A stretch of DNA of 64,000 nucleotides, from positions 422 through 64,421 of the forward strand of contig CANPXT010000006.1 in assembly GCA_947586835.1 (NCBI GenBank), read 5' to 3'. The position numbers and the translations under genes are program-made. The DNA comes from an uncultured Alphaproteobacteria bacterium. Lineage in GTDB: Bacteria > Pseudomonadota > Alphaproteobacteria > CAAHEQ01 > UBA3637. Below, one piece after another: positions 8,370 to 42,951 of the stretch. The first letter of the stretch is position 1. Each line of letters opens with the position of its first letter. The notes beneath the pieces are model-generated. The model searched no databases. It was not told the origin of the DNA and saw only the letters and a list, made by a program, of their open reading frames with translations.

Positions 8370-10559
8370 ATGGCTTTTAATGAAGAAAAATTGAATGAAT
8401 TATCTGAAAAATTAGGTATTTATTTATCCTTTACGGATGATGGAACGCACAAAACTTATCAGGCGGACAGAAAATCAAAACAAGTAATCTGCGCCGGGTT
8501 AGGGTATTCGGCTCATTCGGATAAAGCCGTTGAGAAATCATTGATAAAACTTGAAAATCAATTTTGGTTAAATGGGGTTGAAGCCACACATACGGTATAT
8601 TTAGAAGAAATAAAACCGCTTGTTTTTGAAATGGCGCTGCCGAAAAAATTTGAACATAATTGCATTGATTTTGAGTTTCACAAGGAAGATAATACCGTTG
8701 ATAAAGGCTCATTTTGGTTTCACGATATGCCGTTTTTAACCGAAAAGGAAATTAACGGTGTTTGTTATCAAAAACGACGTGTTTATCTGTTTTTAAATGC
8801 TGATTACGGTTACCACCAAATGCATTTTATATTGCCTGATCAACAAGTGATAAAGATGTATGTGTTTGTGGTGCCTCGTACATGTTATCAACCGACAGAA
8901 ACACCTGAAAATAAATATGTTTACGGTTTTCCCGTTCAATTGTATGCTTTAAAAAGTCGTAAAAATTTCGGTATCGGTGATTTTGGTGATTTACGATATT
9001 TGGCCGCTATCGGCAAAAAACTTCATACCGGTTTAATCGGAATCAATCCGCTCAGTGCGCTTTTTGAAGATATGCCGCAAGATGCCAGTCCTTATAGTTC
9101 TTCATCTCGACTGTTTCTTAATCCGCTTTACATTGATATTACGAATGTTGAAGAATTAAAATCACATGAAGCCTTGCAAAAAAAACTCAATACCAAGACT
9201 TTTCAACAAAAATTAGAAACCCTGCGAAATACAAAAGAAGTAAATTATCAAGAAGTTGCTAAAATTAAGTATTCACTGCTCAATCAATTATATCGGCATT
9301 TTATTGAAACAAAACCCGCTAAACGATATGAAGCTTTTCAAAAATTTTGTAAGGAGCAGGGCGAAGAACTGGAAAACTTTTCCGTTTTTCAAGCTATTCG
9401 ATATATATTCGGAAAAGAAAATAAATCTTTATATTGGCGATCATGGGCAAAAGATTTTCAAGATCCGTCAAGTACAGCCATACTACAATTTAAAAATAAA
9501 TATGCCGACTTAGTGAAGGCAATTAAATATCGACAATTTTTGGCTTTCGAACAATATGATGCGGTAGTAAAAATAATGAAACACCAACTGCCTATTGGTT
9601 TGTATACCGATATGCCGGTCGGGGTGTGTGAAAACAGCGCAGAAGTATGGGCACATCAGGATTTGTTTATTGAAGGTGTGTCAGCCGGTGCGCCGCCTGA
9701 TGCATTTAATCGCAAAGGACAAGATTGGGGGTTGGCCGCATTTCATCCGATTGCATTAAAACAAACGGGCTTTTCGGCTTATCGAAAAGTGATTCGACAA
9801 ATGATGCACGGTGCCGGCGCCGTAAGAATTGATCACGCATTCGGATTGGAACGATTGTATTTGCGGGTTAAAAATGGTGCCGGCGCTTATTTAAAATATC
9901 CGTTTAAAACACTGATGGGAATTGTTGCATTGGAGAGCTTACGGGCAAAATGTTTGGTCATTGCCGAAGATTTGGGAACGGCACCGTGCGGATTTTCCGA
10001 CAAAATGACATCGGCCGCGGCTTATTCGTTTAAAATTCTTCATTTCCACAGGCAAGGTGATTCTTTCCAAGCACCGAATTGTTTTCCTCATTACTCGTTA
10101 ATTGCTTCCGGTACGCACGATATGCCTTCATATAGTTCTTTTTATAAGGGATTGGATTTAGCGTTGTCAAAGCGTTTAAAAACCGTTACGACGGCACAAT
10201 ATAACTTGCATCGAAAAGAACGTTTATCAGATAAAAAAGCTTTTATCAATGCGTTTCAAAGGGCTGGGTATCCCATGCCCGATGAATCGATTAAAATAGC
10301 TGTGAATGCCGATGAAACACCTCCATGGTTTATTGAAAATACCTATCGATATTTAAACGATTGTGACAGTCGCTTGTTAATGGTTCGTTTGGAAGATGTC
10401 TTTAATCAAGATGAACAAACCAATGTACCCGGAACATGTTTTGAATATCCGAACTGGCGATATAAACTGCCTGTTTTAACAGAAGATTTTTTAACTGACG
10501 AACGTTTAAAGAAAATTATTAAAATTATTGAAAAAAAACGAGGATCTTCTCATGAATGA
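8370..10559 (+). CDS. malQ: 4-alpha-glucanotransferase (amylomaltase, GH77) with a long N-terminal extension
   Basis: Motifs include GIGDFGDL, SPYSSSSRLFLNPLYID, RIDHAFGL, VIAEDLG and SGTHD. Confidence 0.9.
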   Translation: MAFNEEKLNELSEKLGIYLSFTDDGTHKTYQADRKSKQVICAGLGYSAHSDKAVEKSLIKLENQFWLNGVEATHTVYLEEIKPLVFEMALPKKFEHNCIDFEFHKEDNTVDKGSFWFHDMPFLTEKEINGVCYQKRRVYLFLNADYGYHQMHFILPDQQVIKMYVFVVPRTCYQPTETPENKYVYGFPVQLYALKSRKNFGIGDFGDLRYLAAIGKKLHTGLIGINPLSALFEDMPQDASPYSSSSRLFLNPLYIDITNVEELKSHEALQKKLNTKTFQQKLETLRNTKEVNYQEVAKIKYSLLNQLYRHFIETKPAKRYEAFQKFCKEQGEELENFSVFQAIRYIFGKENKSLYWRSWAKDFQDPSSTAILQFKNKYADLVKAIKYRQFLAFEQYDAVVKIMKHQLPIGLYTDMPVGVCENSAEVWAHQDLFIEGVSAGAPPDAFNRKGQDWGLAAFHPIALKQTGFSAYRKVIRQMMHGAGAVRIDHAFGLERLYLRVKNGAGAYLKYPFKTLMGIVALESLRAKCLVIAEDLGTAPCGFSDKMTSAAAYSFKILHFHRQGDSFQAPNCFPHYSLIASGTHDMPSYSSFYKGLDLALSKRLKTVTTAQYNLHRKERLSDKKAFINAFQRAGYPMPDESIKIAVNADETPPWFIENTYRYLNDCDSRLLMVRLEDVFNQDEQTNVPGTCFEYPNWRYKLPVLTEDFLTDERLKKIIKIIEKKRGSSHE

Positions 10560-19823: not shown

Positions 19824-21092
19824 TTATTGATAAGCAACCAGTTCTGCCTCATTGGAAAGCAAAATAACTTTTTCATCTCCTAAAATCGGTTTGTTGGAAA
19901 AACCGTCTCTTCGGATGGTTTGTTTAATTTGACCGTTTTGCGGTGCAACAAAAACAACATCACCTTTATTAGAAACAACAATCAACTGATTTCCCGCTAA
20001 TACGGGACCGTTCCAAACAATATTTTTCATTTCTTTAGATTCCAACGGTATTTCCCAAACTAAACGCCCCGTTGATTTTTCCAAAGCTGTCAATGTATTA
20101 CGATTTGTAATTAAAAATAAAGCATTACCGCTGACGACCGGCGTTGATGTTCCACCGATATTTTGCACATATTTCGAAGTTCCCGTGCGTAAATCATATG
20201 CCCCTGTTTTTTGGGCGTTCCCGACCAGATAAACCGTGTTACCGTCAATAACCGGAGCTGCCAATACATGAGAAATATCTTGAATTTGATTAAATGTACG
20301 GGCGGAAAGCAATGCATCAGACCAAAGTATTACACCTGTTTTTGCATCAAATGCAATAATTTCGCCGCTGGAAAACGGAACGACCAACACACCGTTTGAA
20401 ACGGCCGGTTGTCCCATACCCAACAAGTTGGTCATAGTTGATAAATTTCGATACCGCCAAATTTCTTCTCCGTTTAAAGAATCCAATGCAAATAATTCAT
20501 TGTTGCCGGATAATACATATAAAATGCCTTTTTCAATGGTCGGTGCCGAACGTAAAATAGAGTTCGTGTTTTTTTGCCACAAAATTTTGCCTTCAAAATC
20601 AACGGCATAAATCATGCCATTTCCGCCAACGGCATAAACGGCATTTGAATCGGCAGCCAAACCGATACTGGCCAATCCTAAATCTTCGGACACCGGCAAT
20701 GCGATTTGCCACATCAATTTTCCGTCTTTTGCACGGACGGCTGATAACCGAAAAGTCGAATCCAATGCATAAATAACGCCGTCATGAAAAACAGGTTCAG
20801 GCAAAAGCAAATTATCATCGCTAATACCTTTCCCGATTGAGCGTTTCCATACAAGTTGCGGTGAATCGCTTAATTGACCGTGCGGCATTAAGTTTTTAGC
20901 ATTTCCGTTGTTTTGTGACCAATTAAAATCAGAAACCGTTTGTCCGACTTGAATATTTGTTGTTGCTTTCTGTACTTCCGCGGCAGCCGTATTTTTAACC
21001 GCCAATCTTTCACCGGGCGGGACGGGACGCTTTGAATCAGCACAAGCAGCCAATAAAGCACAGATAACAAAAACCGATAACAGTTTTTTCAT
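19824..21092 (-). CDS. bamB: Outer-membrane assembly lipoprotein BamB (PQQ-like beta-propeller)
   Basis: Lipobox LLAAC after MKKLLSVFVICA. The ATG at 21092 is preceded by GGGGAG. Repeated propeller blades (G.lyal...G..lW) are present. The position between the yfgM-like gene and der is conserved synteny. Confidence 0.8.
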   Translation of the reverse strand: MKKLLSVFVICALLAACADSKRPVPPGERLAVKNTAAAEVQKATTNIQVGQTVSDFNWSQNNGNAKNLMPHGQLSDSPQLVWKRSIGKGISDDNLLLPEPVFHDGVIYALDSTFRLSAVRAKDGKLMWQIALPVSEDLGLASIGLAADSNAVYAVGGNGMIYAVDFEGKILWQKNTNSILRSAPTIEKGILYVLSGNNELFALDSLNGEEIWRYRNLSTMTNLLGMGQPAVSNGVLVVPFSSGEIIAFDAKTGVILWSDALLSARTFNQIQDISHVLAAPVIDGNTVYLVGNAQKTGAYDLRTGTSKYVQNIGGTSTPVVSGNALFLITNRNTLTALEKSTGRLVWEIPLESKEMKNIVWNGPVLAGNQLIVVSNKGDVVFVAPQNGQIKQTIRRDGFSNKPILGDEKVILLSNEAELVAYQ

Positions 21093-22710: not shown

Positions 22711-22797
22711 GCCTCTATGGCGAAACTGGTAGACGCGACAGACTCAAAATCTGTTGACCGCAAGGTCATGCTGGTTCAAGTCCGGCTAGAGGTACCA
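22711..22797 (+). tRNA. tRNA-Leu (anticodon CAA), long variable arm, encoded CCA
   Basis: Acceptor GCCTCTA pairs with TAGAGGT. Anticodon stem ACAGA/TCTGT with loop CTCAAAA. T-loop GGTTCAAGTCC. Confidence 0.9.
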
Positions 22798-22904: not shown

Positions 22905-23157
22905 CATTTCACTACTTTTAGTTGTAAAAATTTATAATATTTCTACTTTAAATATATAAAATGAAAAAAATCTGCTAAATTTTTTGCTATTGATATTCTT
23001 ATTTTTATTCATGTATGTATAATTTAATTAATTTTTGATGATATTTTTTTGTCTGTCGGCGGGTGGAACAGACGGTGTTTCAGCGGGAAGTGCCGGCTCG
23101 GGGAACGTGAGCCGGCGCGGGTGGTGCGGGAGGCTGGTAGGTCTCACTTACATAAGG
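22905..23157. repeat. Conserved 3'-flank repeat of the pilin-like loci, copy 1 (twin at 41271-41524); contains a GC-rich hairpin element
   Basis: It aligns by eye over ~250 bp with few substitutions or indels to 41271-41524. Shared blocks include TTGTAAAAATTTATAAT, ATGTATGTATAATTTAATTAATTTTTGATGATATTTTT, and CGGCGGGTGG...GTGTTTCAGCGGGAAGTGCCGGCTC-loop-GAGCCGGCGC. Confidence 0.85.
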
Positions 23158-23206
23158 CGAAGAGGTGGTCGTGGGTTCGTGTGTGAGCAATAGTATACCG
23201 GTATCA

Positions 23207-23686
23207 TCAATCAATACATACAGCATCAGCTTGGTAATAGAAGTCATCACGAAAGTAGTTTTGACCGATATTACCACTATAGAAGCCTACCCAGTATTTG
23301 ATGCAGGAGTTACTCCCTTCACTTGTTGTCCATACATAACTACCTGCTTCTGACATATTTTCAGACAACTTTTCAGACAACTCCTTCAATATCATACTAT
23401 CAGCACATTTGTTACTTCCTGACTCTACAGGAAGTAAAAATTTTGAACACCCCAATTCTTCTAAGCTCACCATCTTTTTGCCAATCGCATAGCAATACCT
23501 CTCTACACTCCACCAGTTCATACACGGACCTATATAATAAGTTGTCCCGTATACTTCCACTTTTTGCGGTTCCTCTATATCCTCACATGTATAGCTACTG
23601 CAAGAAGTTTCGACACCATTGGAGCAACCACACTCTTTGGTCATGCAATATTGACCTGTATCACAATTATTGCAAGGATTTTCCAC
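23207..23686 (-). CDS. C-terminal (Cys-containing, C-type-lectin-like) domain ORF of a split modular pilin-like gene
   Basis: The 159-aa ORF (GTG start in the track) is collinear with residues ~245-395 of the intact paralog 41511-42698 (CSNGVETSC.SY.C.DI.EPQKVEV.G.TYY; MVSL.ELGC). No independent RBS or ATG is visible. It is separated from the upstream ORF only by a +1 frame change at an A8 tract. Confidence 0.6.
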   Translation of the reverse strand: MENPCNNCDTGQYCMTKECGCSNGVETSCSSYTCEDIEEPQKVEVYGTTYYIGPCMNWWSVERYCYAIGKKMVSLEELGCSKFLLPVESGSNKCADSMILKELSEKLSENMSEAGSYVWTTSEGSNSCIKYWVGFYSGNIGQNYFRDDFYYQADAVCID

Positions 23687-24611
23687 ACACTTTTTTTTCT
23701 AAACTGCTCCAATATTTTCCTTCATCACATTCGCATCGCTTCGTTTCTTCATTCCATATGCCACTCGTGGTGGGATCACAAACCACACATTGACCACCGT
23801 ATAAATGCTTTTCTTTATCTTTACATACGCATTCGCTTACCCCTTCATCCCACTCCGTATCCGTCGGGCATGTTATGCACTTTTCGCCGTTCCAATACTT
23901 ATCCGTTTCCGAACATTCACACTTTTCCCCGTCCCATGTGGAATCTGTCGGACACTCTCCACACGTTCCGTCTTCATTGCATGGCCCTTGACAACTTTCA
24001 TCGCATGCCGGTTCCTCTCCTTGCGCTTCGTCTTCCACATTACCTTCACCACCGCTGTTGCGTATCTTTTCACCCGAAAAATCAACTTCCAATGTGTTAC
24101 TGACTTCACTGCATAATGTTACATTCAATTCCGAAGTGCATTTCGTGCCATTTATCACAACTGCTACCGTTTCATCCATACTTTCTAAAAGTGTTGCCAA
24201 CGGTTTGCATACGCCAGCCGTTACCCCTGATACGCTGATAAAATATCCGCTTTTCTCCCTTTCTTCCTCTTCTTCCGACTCTTCCGTGTCATGATTAAAC
24301 CCGAAATCAACTTTATATTTTTCGTTAAAACTCAAATGCCCTAATTCTTCCCCGATTTTGTCATACGGCTCACCTAAAAATAATTTTTGCTCCCCTTGAG
24401 CCAGTTTTATTTTGGCATCATTGCGCATTAAATTTATTTCATTCGCAATTTGATTCGCCTGATACCGTTCCATTGCCATTTTATAGCCTGCGATTCCCCC
24501 CAGTGAAATCACGCCGATAATAGCCAAAACACCCAGCATTTCAACCATTGACCGCCCGTCTTGTGCCTGATTTTGATGCTGCTTTGTTTTATTCTTTTTT
24601 TGAATTTCCAT
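23667..24611 (-). CDS. Modular pilin-like surface protein, N-terminal fragment: class-III (prepilin-type) signal, pilin-like domain and Cys-rich EGF/furin-like repeats
   Basis: The ATG at 24611 is preceded by GGGAGAAAGGG. The leader is MEIQKKNKTKQHQNQAQDG/RSMVEMLGVLAIIGVISL, with Gly at -1, Glu at +5 and a hydrophobic helix. There are 16 Cys in residues 202-309. The longer 385-aa track ORF reads through the upstream IR module and is rejected. Confidence 0.7.
   Translation of the reverse strand: MEIQKKNKTKQHQNQAQDGRSMVEMLGVLAIIGVISLGGIAGYKMAMERYQANQIANEINLMRNDAKIKLAQGEQKLFLGEPYDKIGEELGHLSFNEKYKVDFGFNHDTEESEEEEEREKSGYFISVSGVTAGVCKPLATLLESMDETVAVVINGTKCTSELNVTLCSEVSNTLEVDFSGEKIRNSGGEGNVEDEAQGEEPACDESCQGPCNEDGTCGECPTDSTWDGEKCECSETDKYWNGEKCITCPTDTEWDEGVSECVCKDKEKHLYGGQCVVCDPTTSGIWNEETKRCECDEGKYWSSLEKKVCGKSLQ
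23691..23698 (-). other. A8 homopolymer (T8 on the plus strand) at the frame junction of the split pilin-like gene
   Basis: Minus strand reads ...AGT TTA GAA AAA AAA GTG TGT GGA AAA TCC TTG CAA TAA. With A7 the frame reads ...LEKKCVENPCNNC... straight into the 159-aa ORF. Confidence 0.9.
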
Positions 24612-24643
24612 GAACCCTTTCTCCCGTTTACTTTTTCCTAAAT

Positions 24644-24672
24644 TGTATAAATTAAACGTAGGTTTATTGCAA
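24644..24672 (-). promoter_or_regulatory. Putative promoter of the pilin-like gene (TTGCAA-17 nt-TATACA), with the -35 inside the proximal IR arm
   Basis: ttgcaa at 24667-24672 is palindromic. Plus-strand tgtata at 24644-24649 gives TATACA on the minus strand. The same -10 block is conserved at 42737-42742. Confidence 0.4.
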
Positions 24673-24805
24673 CACTTTTTCGCACGCTTGAAAGAACAAA
24701 CATTTTGAAAACAAGAAAAGAATAACCGATTGAAAATGAACAAAAAACAAGAAAAATAAATTTTTTTGATGAAAAATGAAAAAAAGTGTTGCAATAAACC
24801 TACGT
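24656..24805. repeat. IR-flanked upstream module, copy B: perfect 25-bp inverted repeat (24656-24680 / 24781-24805) around a 100-bp spacer
   Basis: ACGTAGGTTTATTGCAACACTTTTT is the exact reverse complement of AAAAAGTGTTGCAATAAACCTACGT, checked base by base. Confidence 0.95.
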
Positions 24806-24858
24806 CTATTTTGTGCAGATTCAAAAAAAAAGCTGCTCGGAATGAGCAACTTTTTAAA

Positions 24859-24935
24859 TGGTAGGCGACTACGGATTCGAACCGCAGACCCCCTCGGTGT
24901 AAACGAGGTGCTCTGACCAGCTGAGCTAGTCGCCC
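24859..24935 (-). tRNA. tRNA-Val (anticodon TAC), encoded CCA
   Basis: Minus strand reads GGGCGACTAGCTCAGCTGGTCAGAGCACCTCGTTTACACCGAGGGGGTCTGCGGTTCGAATCCGTAGTCGCCTACCA. Anticodon stem CCTCG/CGAGG with loop TTTACAC. Confidence 0.9.
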
Positions 24936-30920: not shown

Positions 30921-31625
30921 TTAAAATGTCCACAATAAATTAAGATACAACAAAAAGAAAACAACAATGCCCGCCAAGCCCAATGCCGGTCCGAAAGCAT
31001 CTGCTCGTTTTTTCTTAATCCAAGCCGTGGCATAGAAAAACAAAAATGAAAGCAAAAGCGTGATATTTAATCCCATAGGACCAAACCAAATACCGAAAGC
31101 CGTTAACATTTTCACATCACCGGCACCGAATTCGCCTTTTTTGAAAAACGACATTATGAAAACGGCAAGGGTGGAAATAATGTAGCCGAACCACGCCCCG
31201 ATAATTCGTTCATTCATCGTTAAAACGGTATCCGACGAAAAACAAGCAAATGTAACACCGATTAATAATAAAGGAATGGTAAAAAAATCGGGTAATAAAT
31301 AATATTGTTGATCTACCGCCATTAAAAGAGCCGTTAAATAAAAAAACAGGCAAGCATAAACATAGATATGCGGTAAAAAAGCACAGGCATACGCAAACAA
31401 AAATCCCATGACAACACCCCAACCAACCGAAAAATAAATCATTTTTCGCCATTTTCCCTCTAACAATTCGCGACGTTTTGCATCTGCTACGCGCGGAAAC
31501 CGCGGTTTATGGAAAAGCATGGCACAAACCAAACCCGGATCGGCGGGTAATATTTTACCGAAACGACTGGCAAATGTCGGTATGGTTAAACCGAGTAAAA
31601 AGCCAATGAACATAATAACCGTCAT
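30921..31625 (-). CDS. Prepilin (A24 family) aspartic peptidase, without an obvious N-terminal Cys-rich methyltransferase module
   Basis: Polytopic membrane protein with a GAGDVKMLTAFG motif (GxGD-type second catalytic Asp). No CxxC pairs are visible at the N-terminus. Confidence 0.75.
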   Translation of the reverse strand: MTVIMFIGFLLGLTIPTFASRFGKILPADPGLVCAMLFHKPRFPRVADAKRRELLEGKWRKMIYFSVGWGVVMGFLFAYACAFLPHIYVYACLFFYLTALLMAVDQQYYLLPDFFTIPLLLIGVTFACFSSDTVLTMNERIIGAWFGYIISTLAVFIMSFFKKGEFGAGDVKMLTAFGIWFGPMGLNITLLLSFLFFYATAWIKKKRADAFGPALGLAGIVVFFLLYLNLLWTF

Positions 31626-41270: not shown

Positions 41271-41524
41271 AATTTTCACCACTTTGGGTTGTAAAAATTT
41301 ATAATTTTTCTACTTTTAATATATAAACGAGAAAAATATTTCGAAATTTTTTGCTGTTTATATTCTCATTTTTATCGATGTATGTATAATTTAATTAATT
41401 TTTGATGATATTTTTTCGTTTATCGGCGGGTGGGACAGAGGGTGTTTCAGCGGGAAGTGCCGGCTCGTGAAACGTGAGCCGGCGCAGGTGGTCAGAGAGG
41501 CTGAGAGGTCTTACTTACATAAGG
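41271..41524. repeat. Conserved 3'-flank repeat of the pilin-like loci, copy 2 (twin of 22905-23157)
   Basis: See copy 1. Hairpin GCCGGCTC (41459-41466) pairs with GAGCCGGC (41476-41483); the loop is GTGAAACGT, versus GGGGAACGT in copy 1. Confidence 0.85.
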
Positions 41525-42698
41525 TATCAAAACCGCCTGATTCCTGGTAGAAGTCTCTATTACTACCGGGAACTATCACGTATGCCTTGCAGGAATTCTC
41601 ACTATCATCAGATGGTTTTGTCCATAAAGCTCTTCTTCCAGCATTTTTTTCCTGCAGCTTCTTTATTAATGCACTTCCGGAACAGTCGACTGTTTTCGCC
41701 GTCGCTGTGCATCCCAACTCGCTTAAACTTACCATCTGTCCTGTTCCCTTCCCTTGTCTTCCTAATGCTTGGCAATATCTCTTTGCATTCCACAACTCCA
41801 TCAAAACATTATCCGTATAATAATAAGTCTCCCCGTCTACTTCCACTTTTTGCGGTTCTCCTATATCCATACATCTATAACTCCGGCAAGAAGTTTCAAC
41901 ACCATTGGAGCAACTACAACTGAGCATACAAAATTGATTACTGAGGCAATCATCATCTGTTGTACAATTCTTTCCTATTGTTGTCGCTGTTGCTGTCTCT
42001 GTTGTTATTGCTGCCGTTGTCGTAATGGGGGTTGTCGTTATCGGAGCTGTCGCTGTCGGTGTTGTCGGCATCGGTGTTGTTGGCGTCGGTGTTGTGGGCG
42101 TCGCTGTCGTAGTGGTAAATGTCACTGCCGTTGTCATCGGTTCATCTTCCTCATCATTCACAACACCCAAATCTGTGGTCGAAAATGCCACTTCTATTTT
42201 GTTTTCTGTGGCGCAAATGTTCCAATCCGTATCATAATAATCAACTTCATTTACTTTTATATCTTCCGTGTCTTCCATACTATCTAAAAGCGTGACTAAC
42301 GGTTTGCATACGCCCTCTGAAATGTTTGATACACTGATAAAATATTCATCTTCCGTCTCTTCCTCTTCTTCCGGATCTTGCGAATCATTATTAAACCCGA
42401 AATCAACTTTATATTTTTCGTTTAAACTCAAATGCCCTAATTCTTCGCCATCATTATCGTATGGTTCTCCTAAAAATAAATCGGCACCTTGTGCTACTTT
42501 CATCTTCATATCATTGCGTATTAAGTTGATTTCATTCGCAATTTGATTCGCCTGATACCGATCCATTGCCATTTTATAGCCTGCGATTCCCCCCAATGAA
42601 ATCACACCGATGATGGCCAAAACACCCAGCATTTCGACCATGCTGCGCCCGTCTTGTGCTTGTTTTTGTTGTTGTTTTAATTGTTTATTTTCTTGCAT
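41511..42698 (-). CDS. Modular pilin-like surface protein (intact paralog): class-III signal, pilin-like domain, Thr/Pro-rich linker and a Cys-containing lectin-like C-terminal domain
   Basis: The ATG at 42698 is preceded by GGGAGAAAGGA. The leader is MQENKQLKQQQKQAQDG/RSMVEMLGVLAIIGVISL. A disulfide pair sits in the pilin-like part (GVCKPL...NIC). The linker is TTAVTFTTTTATPTTPTPTTPMPTTPTATAPITTTPITTT. The C-terminal domain contains W.AKRYCQALG....MVSLSELGC...WT....NSC. Confidence 0.75.
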   Translation of the reverse strand: MQENKQLKQQQKQAQDGRSMVEMLGVLAIIGVISLGGIAGYKMAMDRYQANQIANEINLIRNDMKMKVAQGADLFLGEPYDNDGEELGHLSLNEKYKVDFGFNNDSQDPEEEEETEDEYFISVSNISEGVCKPLVTLLDSMEDTEDIKVNEVDYYDTDWNICATENKIEVAFSTTDLGVVNDEEDEPMTTAVTFTTTTATPTTPTPTTPMPTTPTATAPITTTPITTTAAITTETATATTIGKNCTTDDDCLSNQFCMLSCSCSNGVETSCRSYRCMDIGEPQKVEVDGETYYYTDNVLMELWNAKRYCQALGRQGKGTGQMVSLSELGCTATAKTVDCSGSALIKKLQEKNAGRRALWTKPSDDSENSCKAYVIVPGSNRDFYQESGGFDTLCK

Positions 42699-42748
42699 TT
42701 TCGTGAATCCTTTCTCCCGTTTACTTTTTCCTAAATTGTATAAATTAA

Positions 42749-42899
42749 ACGTAGGTCTAGTTGGTGCACTTTTTTGCACGCTTGAAAAAACAAACATTTT
42801 AAAAATAATAAAAAAATAACCGATTGAAAATGAATAAAAAACAAGAAAAATAAATTTTTTTGATGAAAAATGAAAAAAAATGTTGCAAAAATCGTACGT
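42749..42899. repeat. IR-flanked upstream module, copy C: the distal arm and spacer are conserved, the proximal arm is degenerate
   Basis: The reverse complement of the distal arm 42874-42899 is ACGTACGATTTTTGCAACATTTTTTT. The proximal arm 42749-42775 is ACGTAGGTCTAGTTGGTGCACTTTTTT, which matches only at the ACGTA.G start and the T-run. The spacer is nearly identical to copy B. Confidence 0.75.
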
Positions 42900-42951
42900 T
42901 TATTTTGTGCAACTCCAACCCCCAAAATTTATTAATCTTAAAAAAAACAAC

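Follow-up and report, generated by a model that had tools for sequence, protein, structure and literature searches.

A frameshift at an eight-adenine run probably removes the predicted lectin-like tip from one paralogue of a multicopy type IV pilin family in an uncultured alphaproteobacterium

In a 64,000-nucleotide (64-kb) stretch of DNA from an uncultured gut alphaproteobacterium, referred to here as the window, one gene is split into two open reading frames (ORFs) at a run of eight adenines (A8). The split gene is probably a young frameshift allele, fixed at the consensus level in the sampled populations, that deprives one copy in a redundant family of its lectin-like tip. In this reading, one gene from a large family of modular type IV pilins, present in many copies, would have undergone a +1 frameshift, most simply A7 to A8, in its Glu-Lys-Lys codons GAA AAA AAG. 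The locus would now encode a 314-aa pilin lacking the lectin-like module, or nothing useful, making it a young pseudogene or truncated allele, and the A8 allele would be the consensus state in every sampled population of the strain. The run itself would be an ordinary by-product of lysine codons in a genome of 38% GC, without any dedicated switching role. Replication slippage could physically revert it, and transcriptional slippage could correct a few percent of the mRNA; both would be incidental.

The split gene comprises the following features, listed together with the intact paralogue found in the same window.

23691 to 23698, minus strand: A8 homopolymer (GAA AAA AAA G), the frameshift site, exactly eight A (23698 to 23691)
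23685 to 23690, minus strand: (GT)3 directly 3' of the A8 run, from direct reading
23667 to 24611, minus strand: truncated ORF of 314 aa, which starts with a prepilin-type (class III) leader and continues with a predicted pilin module and EGF-like Cys-rich repeats
23207 to 23686, minus strand: downstream ORF of 159 codons, predicted C-type-lectin-like module (AF2 model and Foldseek)
41511 to 42698, minus strand: intact paralogue of 395 aa, which shares both the pilin and the lectin-like modules but has a Thr/Pro-rich linker

The minus strand runs ...TGG AGC AGT TTA GAA AAA AAA GTG TGT GGA AAA TCC TTG CAA TAA. Counted from its ATG at 24611, the 314-aa ORF stops seven sense codons past A8, and the 159-codon ORF follows in the +1 frame with a 20-nt overlap. 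The run marks the border where the final EGF-like repeat meets the lectin-like module, at two thirds of the gene's length and away from its start. By frame arithmetic, A7 gives a 467-aa ORF and A10 one of 468 aa, A9 leads to a stop, and A8 gives the split. The initial annotation had placed A8 at the junction of two ORFs and predicted that A7 would restore a 467-aa protein collinear with the paralogue at 41511-42698; direct reading (23691-23698) confirmed the first point, and frame arithmetic together with alignment confirmed the second. Its description of the downstream ORF, as having no start signals of its own and as corresponding to the C-terminal domain of the paralogue, also proved correct: the possible starts are a GTG or an ATG 14 codons inside, direct reading revealed no Shine-Dalgarno-like sequence, and identity to the paralogue is 42% over 136 aa (E=6e-25). 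With neither a ribosome-binding site (RBS) nor a signal peptide of its own, the 159-codon ORF is unlikely to be expressed separately, and this possibility was rejected. As an alternative origin, the same frame error may have come from a (GT)4 beside A8 that lost one GT.

Based on alignments and structural models, the gene is predicted to be a modular type IV pilin composed of a pilin module, an EGF-like Cys-rich stalk and a C-type-lectin-like module, so that the A8 frameshift would sever the lectin-like module from the pilin and stalk. The leader of the 314-aa ORF (...QAQDG/RSMVEMLGVLAIIGV) has the hallmarks of a class III signal peptide: it is short and basic with Gly at -1, and is followed by Glu at +5 and a hydrophobic alpha1-N helix. 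Across the family, the leader ...QAQDG/RSMVEMLGVLAIIGVISLGGIAGY is invariant in 17/17 aligned members, with Arg and not Phe or Met at +1, and the earlier view of a pilin-like surface gene holds. The alignment of 17 sequences shows an almost invariant N-terminal region of 190 residues, followed by variable Cys-rich repeats and a C-terminal module with invariant Cys and Trp. A Pfam scan of the protein gave no significant match, and NCBIfam gave prepilin-type matches only, which were weak and below the cut-off. The full-length AF2 model (pLDDT 66) had as its best PDB match the S. typhi type IVb pilin 3fhu, with a probability of 0.99 but E=0.025; TcpA and CofA came next, and the model also matched EGFR-like Cys-rich regions and C-type-lectin-like domains. 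Modeled alone, the downstream ORF reached a pLDDT of 85 and a pTM of 0.82. Essentially all of its approximately 30 top Foldseek matches in the PDB were C-type-lectin-like, at marginal scores (E=0.011-1, TM 0.4-0.6), and we refer to it as a predicted C-type-lectin-like module. The split gene and the paralogue at 41511-42698 are 76% identical in their N-terminal parts. In place of an EGF-like Cys-rich stalk, the paralogue has a Thr/Pro-rich low-complexity linker (window 41990-42140; TTPTPTTPMPTTP...), indicating that stalk type varies within one genome.

The family to which the split gene belongs is large. The A7 fusion used as a query returned 222 homologues, many of them 440-500 aa long and covering 94-99% of the fusion, and a genome collection held at least 584 matching stretches, with many copies in single genomes and at least six on one 192-kb contig. 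The hosts are uncultured gut Alphaproteobacteria known from metagenome-assembled genomes (MAGs) of rabbit, ruminants and humans; a literature search on pilins of gut Alphaproteobacteria found nothing relevant. Comparison with these homologues bears on the age of the lesion. The junction of the A7 fusion (...KYWSSLEKK/CVENPCNNC...) matches the family consensus GKxWxxxxGKCIxNxCN, and the Cys just past the A8 run occupies an invariant column of the 17-sequence alignment. The A7/A10 fusion can be aligned over its whole length with 16 homologues, and its A7 form keeps all invariant C-terminal residues (C308, C316, C322, C329, W367, C373, A375, C388, L411 and C465), suggesting that the fused form is ancestral and the lesion young. 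Most homologues have no run at the A8 site, while one (P0015) carries an in-frame A7 at the homologous junction (CAA AAA AAG TGC, encoding QKKC). This example indicates that Lys-Lys codons generate such runs and makes A7 to A8 the simplest history. From these comparisons we infer that A7 mutated to A8, that it did so recently and that function was lost.

The A8 run recurs in other assemblies. Look-ups with the neighboring genes and the downstream ORF recovered three further contigs (ERZ27249446 NODE_563, ERZ27060145 NODE_1910 and ERZ27249451 NODE_65527; loci L088, L093 and L094), and, counting the window, A8 was found in 4/4 assemblies spanning this position. All three contigs from other samples are of the SPAdes-style NODE type, with a coverage of about 6-7x, and the four-fold A8 is an assembly consensus, a level at which mixtures of A7, A8 and A9 within populations are invisible. 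The four assemblies are nearly identical and most likely come from one study, so they are not fully independent, and independence from the window's own data is not demonstrable. With 24 substitutions confined to two tight patches and identity to the window elsewhere, the ERZ27060145 contig is a distinct second haplotype that also carries A8. These patches (L093 1184-1246 and 3844-3919) correspond to window 23103-23165 and 20430-20505; one lies in the 3' element of the split gene, where it is paralogue-like, and the other within a bamB-like gene. Judged from the sequence, both look like short gene-conversion or recombination tracts. No length change was seen at other A/T runs of at least 8 in 27 observations across all other-sample contigs overlapping the window. 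Exact look-up of the A7 and A10 full-length proteins and of partial forms found none in a collection of 15 billion proteins, and a pattern scan of metagenome_contigs for other run lengths gave 0 matches.

These data speak directly to the idea, listed as an alternative in the initial annotation, that A8 is an assembly or sequencing artefact, the true sequence being A7 and the gene intact. Homopolymers are a classic source of indel errors and the coverage was low, yet four separate assemblies, three of them SPAdes-style contigs from other samples, agree on A8, none of the window's 22 in-ORF runs breaks another gene, and the 27 observations of other runs were identical between assemblies. We regard an artefact as very unlikely. 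Another of the annotation's alternatives, a fixed pseudogene, fits best in that the gene is disrupted relative to intact homologues and the lesion is fixed, at the consensus level, in all four assemblies. It fits less well in that further decay is absent: the 17-sequence alignment and an ORF check revealed no second lesion in the 159 downstream codons. An undamaged downstream ORF is also what a maintained reversible switch would be expected to show, and together with the nature of the product, a surface adhesin-type protein of the classic contingency-gene class, and the restriction of all data to consensus sequences at about 6-7x, it weighs against a young frameshift.

The reading favored by the initial annotation was a slipped-strand contingency switch. 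At a true locus of this kind, replication would toggle A7 and A8 and thereby turn the lectin-like tip on and off, and the sampled populations would happen to be mostly in the OFF state. Several features are in keeping with this proposal. A single-base change restores a complete conserved protein (A7 and A10 are on, A8 and A9 off), the downstream ORF is intact, and the product is a predicted surface adhesin from a multicopy variable family. Furthermore, homopolymers of at least 8 were often variable in deep sequencing of N. meningitidis (PMC5084427), which counts in favor of a switch and against the young-frameshift reading. In the same species, weak phase-variation candidates were almost all A/T runs, while strong ones were mostly G/C (PMC5084427), and selection against slippery A/T runs typically starts at ~9 nt (PMC1088944). 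By analogy with these systems, A8 would sit at the low edge of potentially variable run lengths.

Against this background, the run is not exceptional within the window. Inside long ORFs the window contains 22 A/T runs of at least 8, including A9 and T9 (~0.4 per kb of coding sequence), and all except 23691-23698 are in frame. With ~20 such in-frame runs in ordinary genes, A8 by itself is unremarkable in the window, and what is unusual about the run at 23691-23698 is its out-of-frame state and not its length. If A8 slipped fast, many housekeeping genes of the same 64 kb would be unstable. A window-wide scan for ORFs that merge upon a ±1 change at A/T runs of at least 7 or G/C runs of at least 5 identified 23691-23698 as the only real case. 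A further A8 at 10531-10538 was rejected as a frameshift, being the extreme end of malQ where it overlaps the start region of the next gene; from its sequence, this next gene is a candidate acyl-ACP thioesterase-like gene. The family offers no sign of a dedicated tract either. In 80 complete genes (95.7 kb) there are five A8 and one T8, none longer than 8 and none at a conserved position. In a tblastn search for split genes, with 17 family proteins as queries and the window and 83 loci as targets, N- and C-terminal matches fell in different frames for the window gene only.

The proposed switch failed every available indirect test, namely polymorphism (A8 in 4/4 assemblies and two haplotypes, at the consensus level), conservation, length relative to the genome background (A8, against a threshold of ~9 for A/T) and recurrence (none other of the 83 loci is split). 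The run is short, made of A/T, neither conserved nor enriched in the family, and is found two thirds into the gene and not near its start; no other family gene is frameshifted at a run. Taken together, we consider a slipped-strand contingency locus unlikely. One other family member is broken, though in a different way: P0021 (L092, ERZ27249106 NODE_33781) is frameshifted at about codon 250 by a deletion of ~26 nt between GAAGCGC direct repeats, which is not at a homopolymer and is irreversible, and its downstream lectin-like part is intact in another frame. Coverage of this contig is 5x and misassembly is possible. The P0021 deletion indicates that ordinary decay does occur in the pilin family.

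A different way to reconcile a stable A8 with an undamaged downstream ORF would be partial rescue during expression, either by RNA polymerase slippage that yields A7 or A10 transcripts or by a +1 slip of tRNA-Lys on AAA AAA G, so that a minor fraction of full-length, lectin-tipped pilin is made beside the truncated form. Loss of one nucleotide in the RNA, or a +1 ribosomal slip (E-K-K-C-V-E-N), gives exactly the family-like junction, and productive transcriptional slippage on A8 is known from some IS elements and from human apoB, for which ~10% rescue was reported (PMC1088944), a precedent that also counts against reading the locus as a simple young frameshift. However, efficient bacterial slippage usually needs at least 9 A/T (PMC1088944), the run and its two-ORF layout are unique to the window gene and not conserved in 80 homologues, stimulatory elements are not evident, and the many in-frame A8 and A9 runs in essential genes imply low slippage at this length. 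Partial rescue thus appears improbable. A -1 ribosomal frameshift on A-AAA-AAG was rejected, since it yields the wrong frame, equivalent to A9. Whether framed as a low-frequency reversible switch or as a transcriptional-slippage 'dimmer' for the C-type-lectin-like tip, a regulatory role for A8 is doubtful, and a young frameshift allele is our preferred explanation.

The surroundings of the split gene contain several further elements.

24632 to 24829, minus strand: conserved upstream module of two inverted arms of ~49 nt with a 100-nt T-rich spacer
24859 to 24935, minus strand: tRNA-Val(TAC), whose terminator is directly upstream of the inverted-repeat module
23144 to 23203, minus strand: in-frame remnant of an older C-terminus (...HLFALCK*; ...YRYTIAHTRTHDHLFALCK*), past the gene's own stops TGA TGA
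23040 to 23143, minus strand: GC-rich 3' element with the hairpin GCCGGCTC-N9-GAGCCGGC
22711 to 22797, plus strand: tRNA-Leu(CAA), flanking the split gene
30921 to 31625, minus strand: prepilin peptidase gene (Peptidase_A24), the enzyme expected to process the pilin family

The arms of the upstream module (24632-24680 and 24781-24829) are 49 nt each and 82% complementary, and the paralogue carries the same module at 42745-42925 with 88% identity. The consensus arms are AAACGTACGaTTTTTGCAAC ... GTTGCAttAAAggTACGTTT, and direct reading of the alignment places a putative promoter, TTGCAA-17-TATACA, over the gene-proximal arm. A similar arrangement of terminator, arms of 20-49 nt, ~100-nt spacer and putative promoter precedes family genes in several MAG species. 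In rabbit-MAG loci (L034, L007, L013, L010 and others), the spacer has a conserved GGAGG-N8-ATG, and a ~30-codon ORF crosses the gene-proximal arm and ends immediately ahead of the pilin RBS. Neither copy of the module in the window conserves this ORF. The other-sample contigs stop either in the conserved N-terminal pilin region or in or beside the inverted-repeat module (L084-L087 end at window 24359, 24854, 24746 and 24713, and L088/L093 start at 24348). Such ends in family repeats are consistent with multicopy repeats breaking short-read assemblies and could hide structural variation.

The initial annotation had suggested that the upstream inverted repeat acts as a second stochastic switch on the same gene. 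The module is indeed a real and conserved element, with upstream copies at about 36-46 loci among L001-L083. In the fetched loci it occurs in a single orientation: the spacer block adjoins the distal arm in 46 cases and the gene-proximal arm in 0/36, such that both orientations, as expected of an inverton, were not observed (46 distal and 36 gene-proximal arms), and an inverton was rejected. Orientation scoring by the outer flank was confounded, as the inverted repeat extends into the flanks, and a scan of metagenome_contigs with the family-wide arm pattern gave 0 matches and was given no weight on orientation. Moreover, the gene-proximal arm or the sequence beyond it contains the likely promoter, so that inversion between the arms would not move it. 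With a single orientation and a promoter outside the invertible part, two independent stochastic switches are unsupported. Compared with an inverton, a pair of operators or a duplicated promoter element is no less likely, and a recombination site is a further possible role for the module.

Downstream of the split gene, the remnant at 23144-23203 is homologous to the final codons of the paralogue (TLCK*), and the GC-rich 3' element that both genes share comes after it, so the C-terminal module appears to have been replaced by recombination, of which the remnant suggests a footprint. The 3' element is common to the paralogue (41430-41510), the 3' end of L092 and family genes in other genomes. 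Its GC content is about 65% in a genome of 38% GC, and a second hairpin precedes an A-run. Rfam identified only the tRNAs and had no match for the 3' element. In the ERZ27060145 haplotype, the paralogue-like patch lies exactly at the remnant and 3' element. From these sequence footprints, the diversity of the family seems to arise mainly from module exchange between copies. Besides the prepilin peptidase gene, the 64-kb window contains no assembly ATPase or platform genes.

As it stands, the window gene is one broken copy within a big surface-protein family, and it carries a caution: A8 at a frameshift in an AT-rich genome is, by itself, no evidence for phase variation. More noteworthy than the run is the pilin family itself, with its EGF-like stalk, lectin-like tip and conserved 5' inverted-repeat and 3' GC-rich modules, an architecture that, together with the footprints of C-terminal module replacement, suggests a repertoire for binding hosts or glycans that recombination has diversified. 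If a switch or 'dimmer' were nonetheless at work, a gut commensal alphaproteobacterium would diversify lectin-tipped pilins by homopolymer slippage in addition to recombination of C-terminal modules, and mixtures of A7 and A8, if found in reads, would turn the locus into a case in which the switching of a tip adhesin by a commensal could be tested.

Frameshifts at homopolymers in paralogues of surface proteins are an already known kind of event. Like the window gene, Neisseria pilC with its poly-G tract, poly-G genes of Campylobacter and the A/T and CT tracts of Helicobacter have surface or adhesin genes in which a ±1 change in a repeat toggles the full-length product. Those simple-sequence-repeat (SSR) switches rely on runs that are longer, made of G/C or both, and that are conserved while differing in length between strains, whereas the window A8 is not conserved, has the same length in four assemblies and is matched or exceeded in length by many runs in housekeeping genes. 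Genes that depend on poly(A) slippage, including those of endosymbionts, IS3-family transposases, Thermus dnaX and Shigella mxiE, likewise have an A-run at the junction with a startless downstream ORF, but their runs are usually at least 9 and conserved among homologues (PMC1088944), while the window run is 8 long and present in one paralogue only. Closest to the preferred reading are young pseudogenes in surface-protein families, which share a single lesion in an otherwise intact copy and the presence of intact paralogues. The window gene differs in that reversion at A8 is easier than average, so that 'dead' and 'dormant' are indistinguishable by sequence alone.

The predicted architecture also has established counterparts in modular tip pilins, a concept whose wide distribution has been described (PMC8179133, PMC6048534). 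ETEC CofB, V. cholerae TcpB and S. sanguinis PilB/PilC, like the window gene, combine a prepilin leader and pilin module with a linker or repeats and a C-terminal ligand-binding module, and the best structural match of the window gene's N-terminal part is to type IVb pilins (3fhu, TcpA, CofA). Unlike these proteins, the window gene has an EGF-like, Cys-rich stalk, and its predicted tip is C-type-lectin-like and not an H-type lectin, vWA or ConA-like domain. It also lies outside any pilus operon and belongs to a family present in many copies per genome, which share elements at their 5' and 3' ends.
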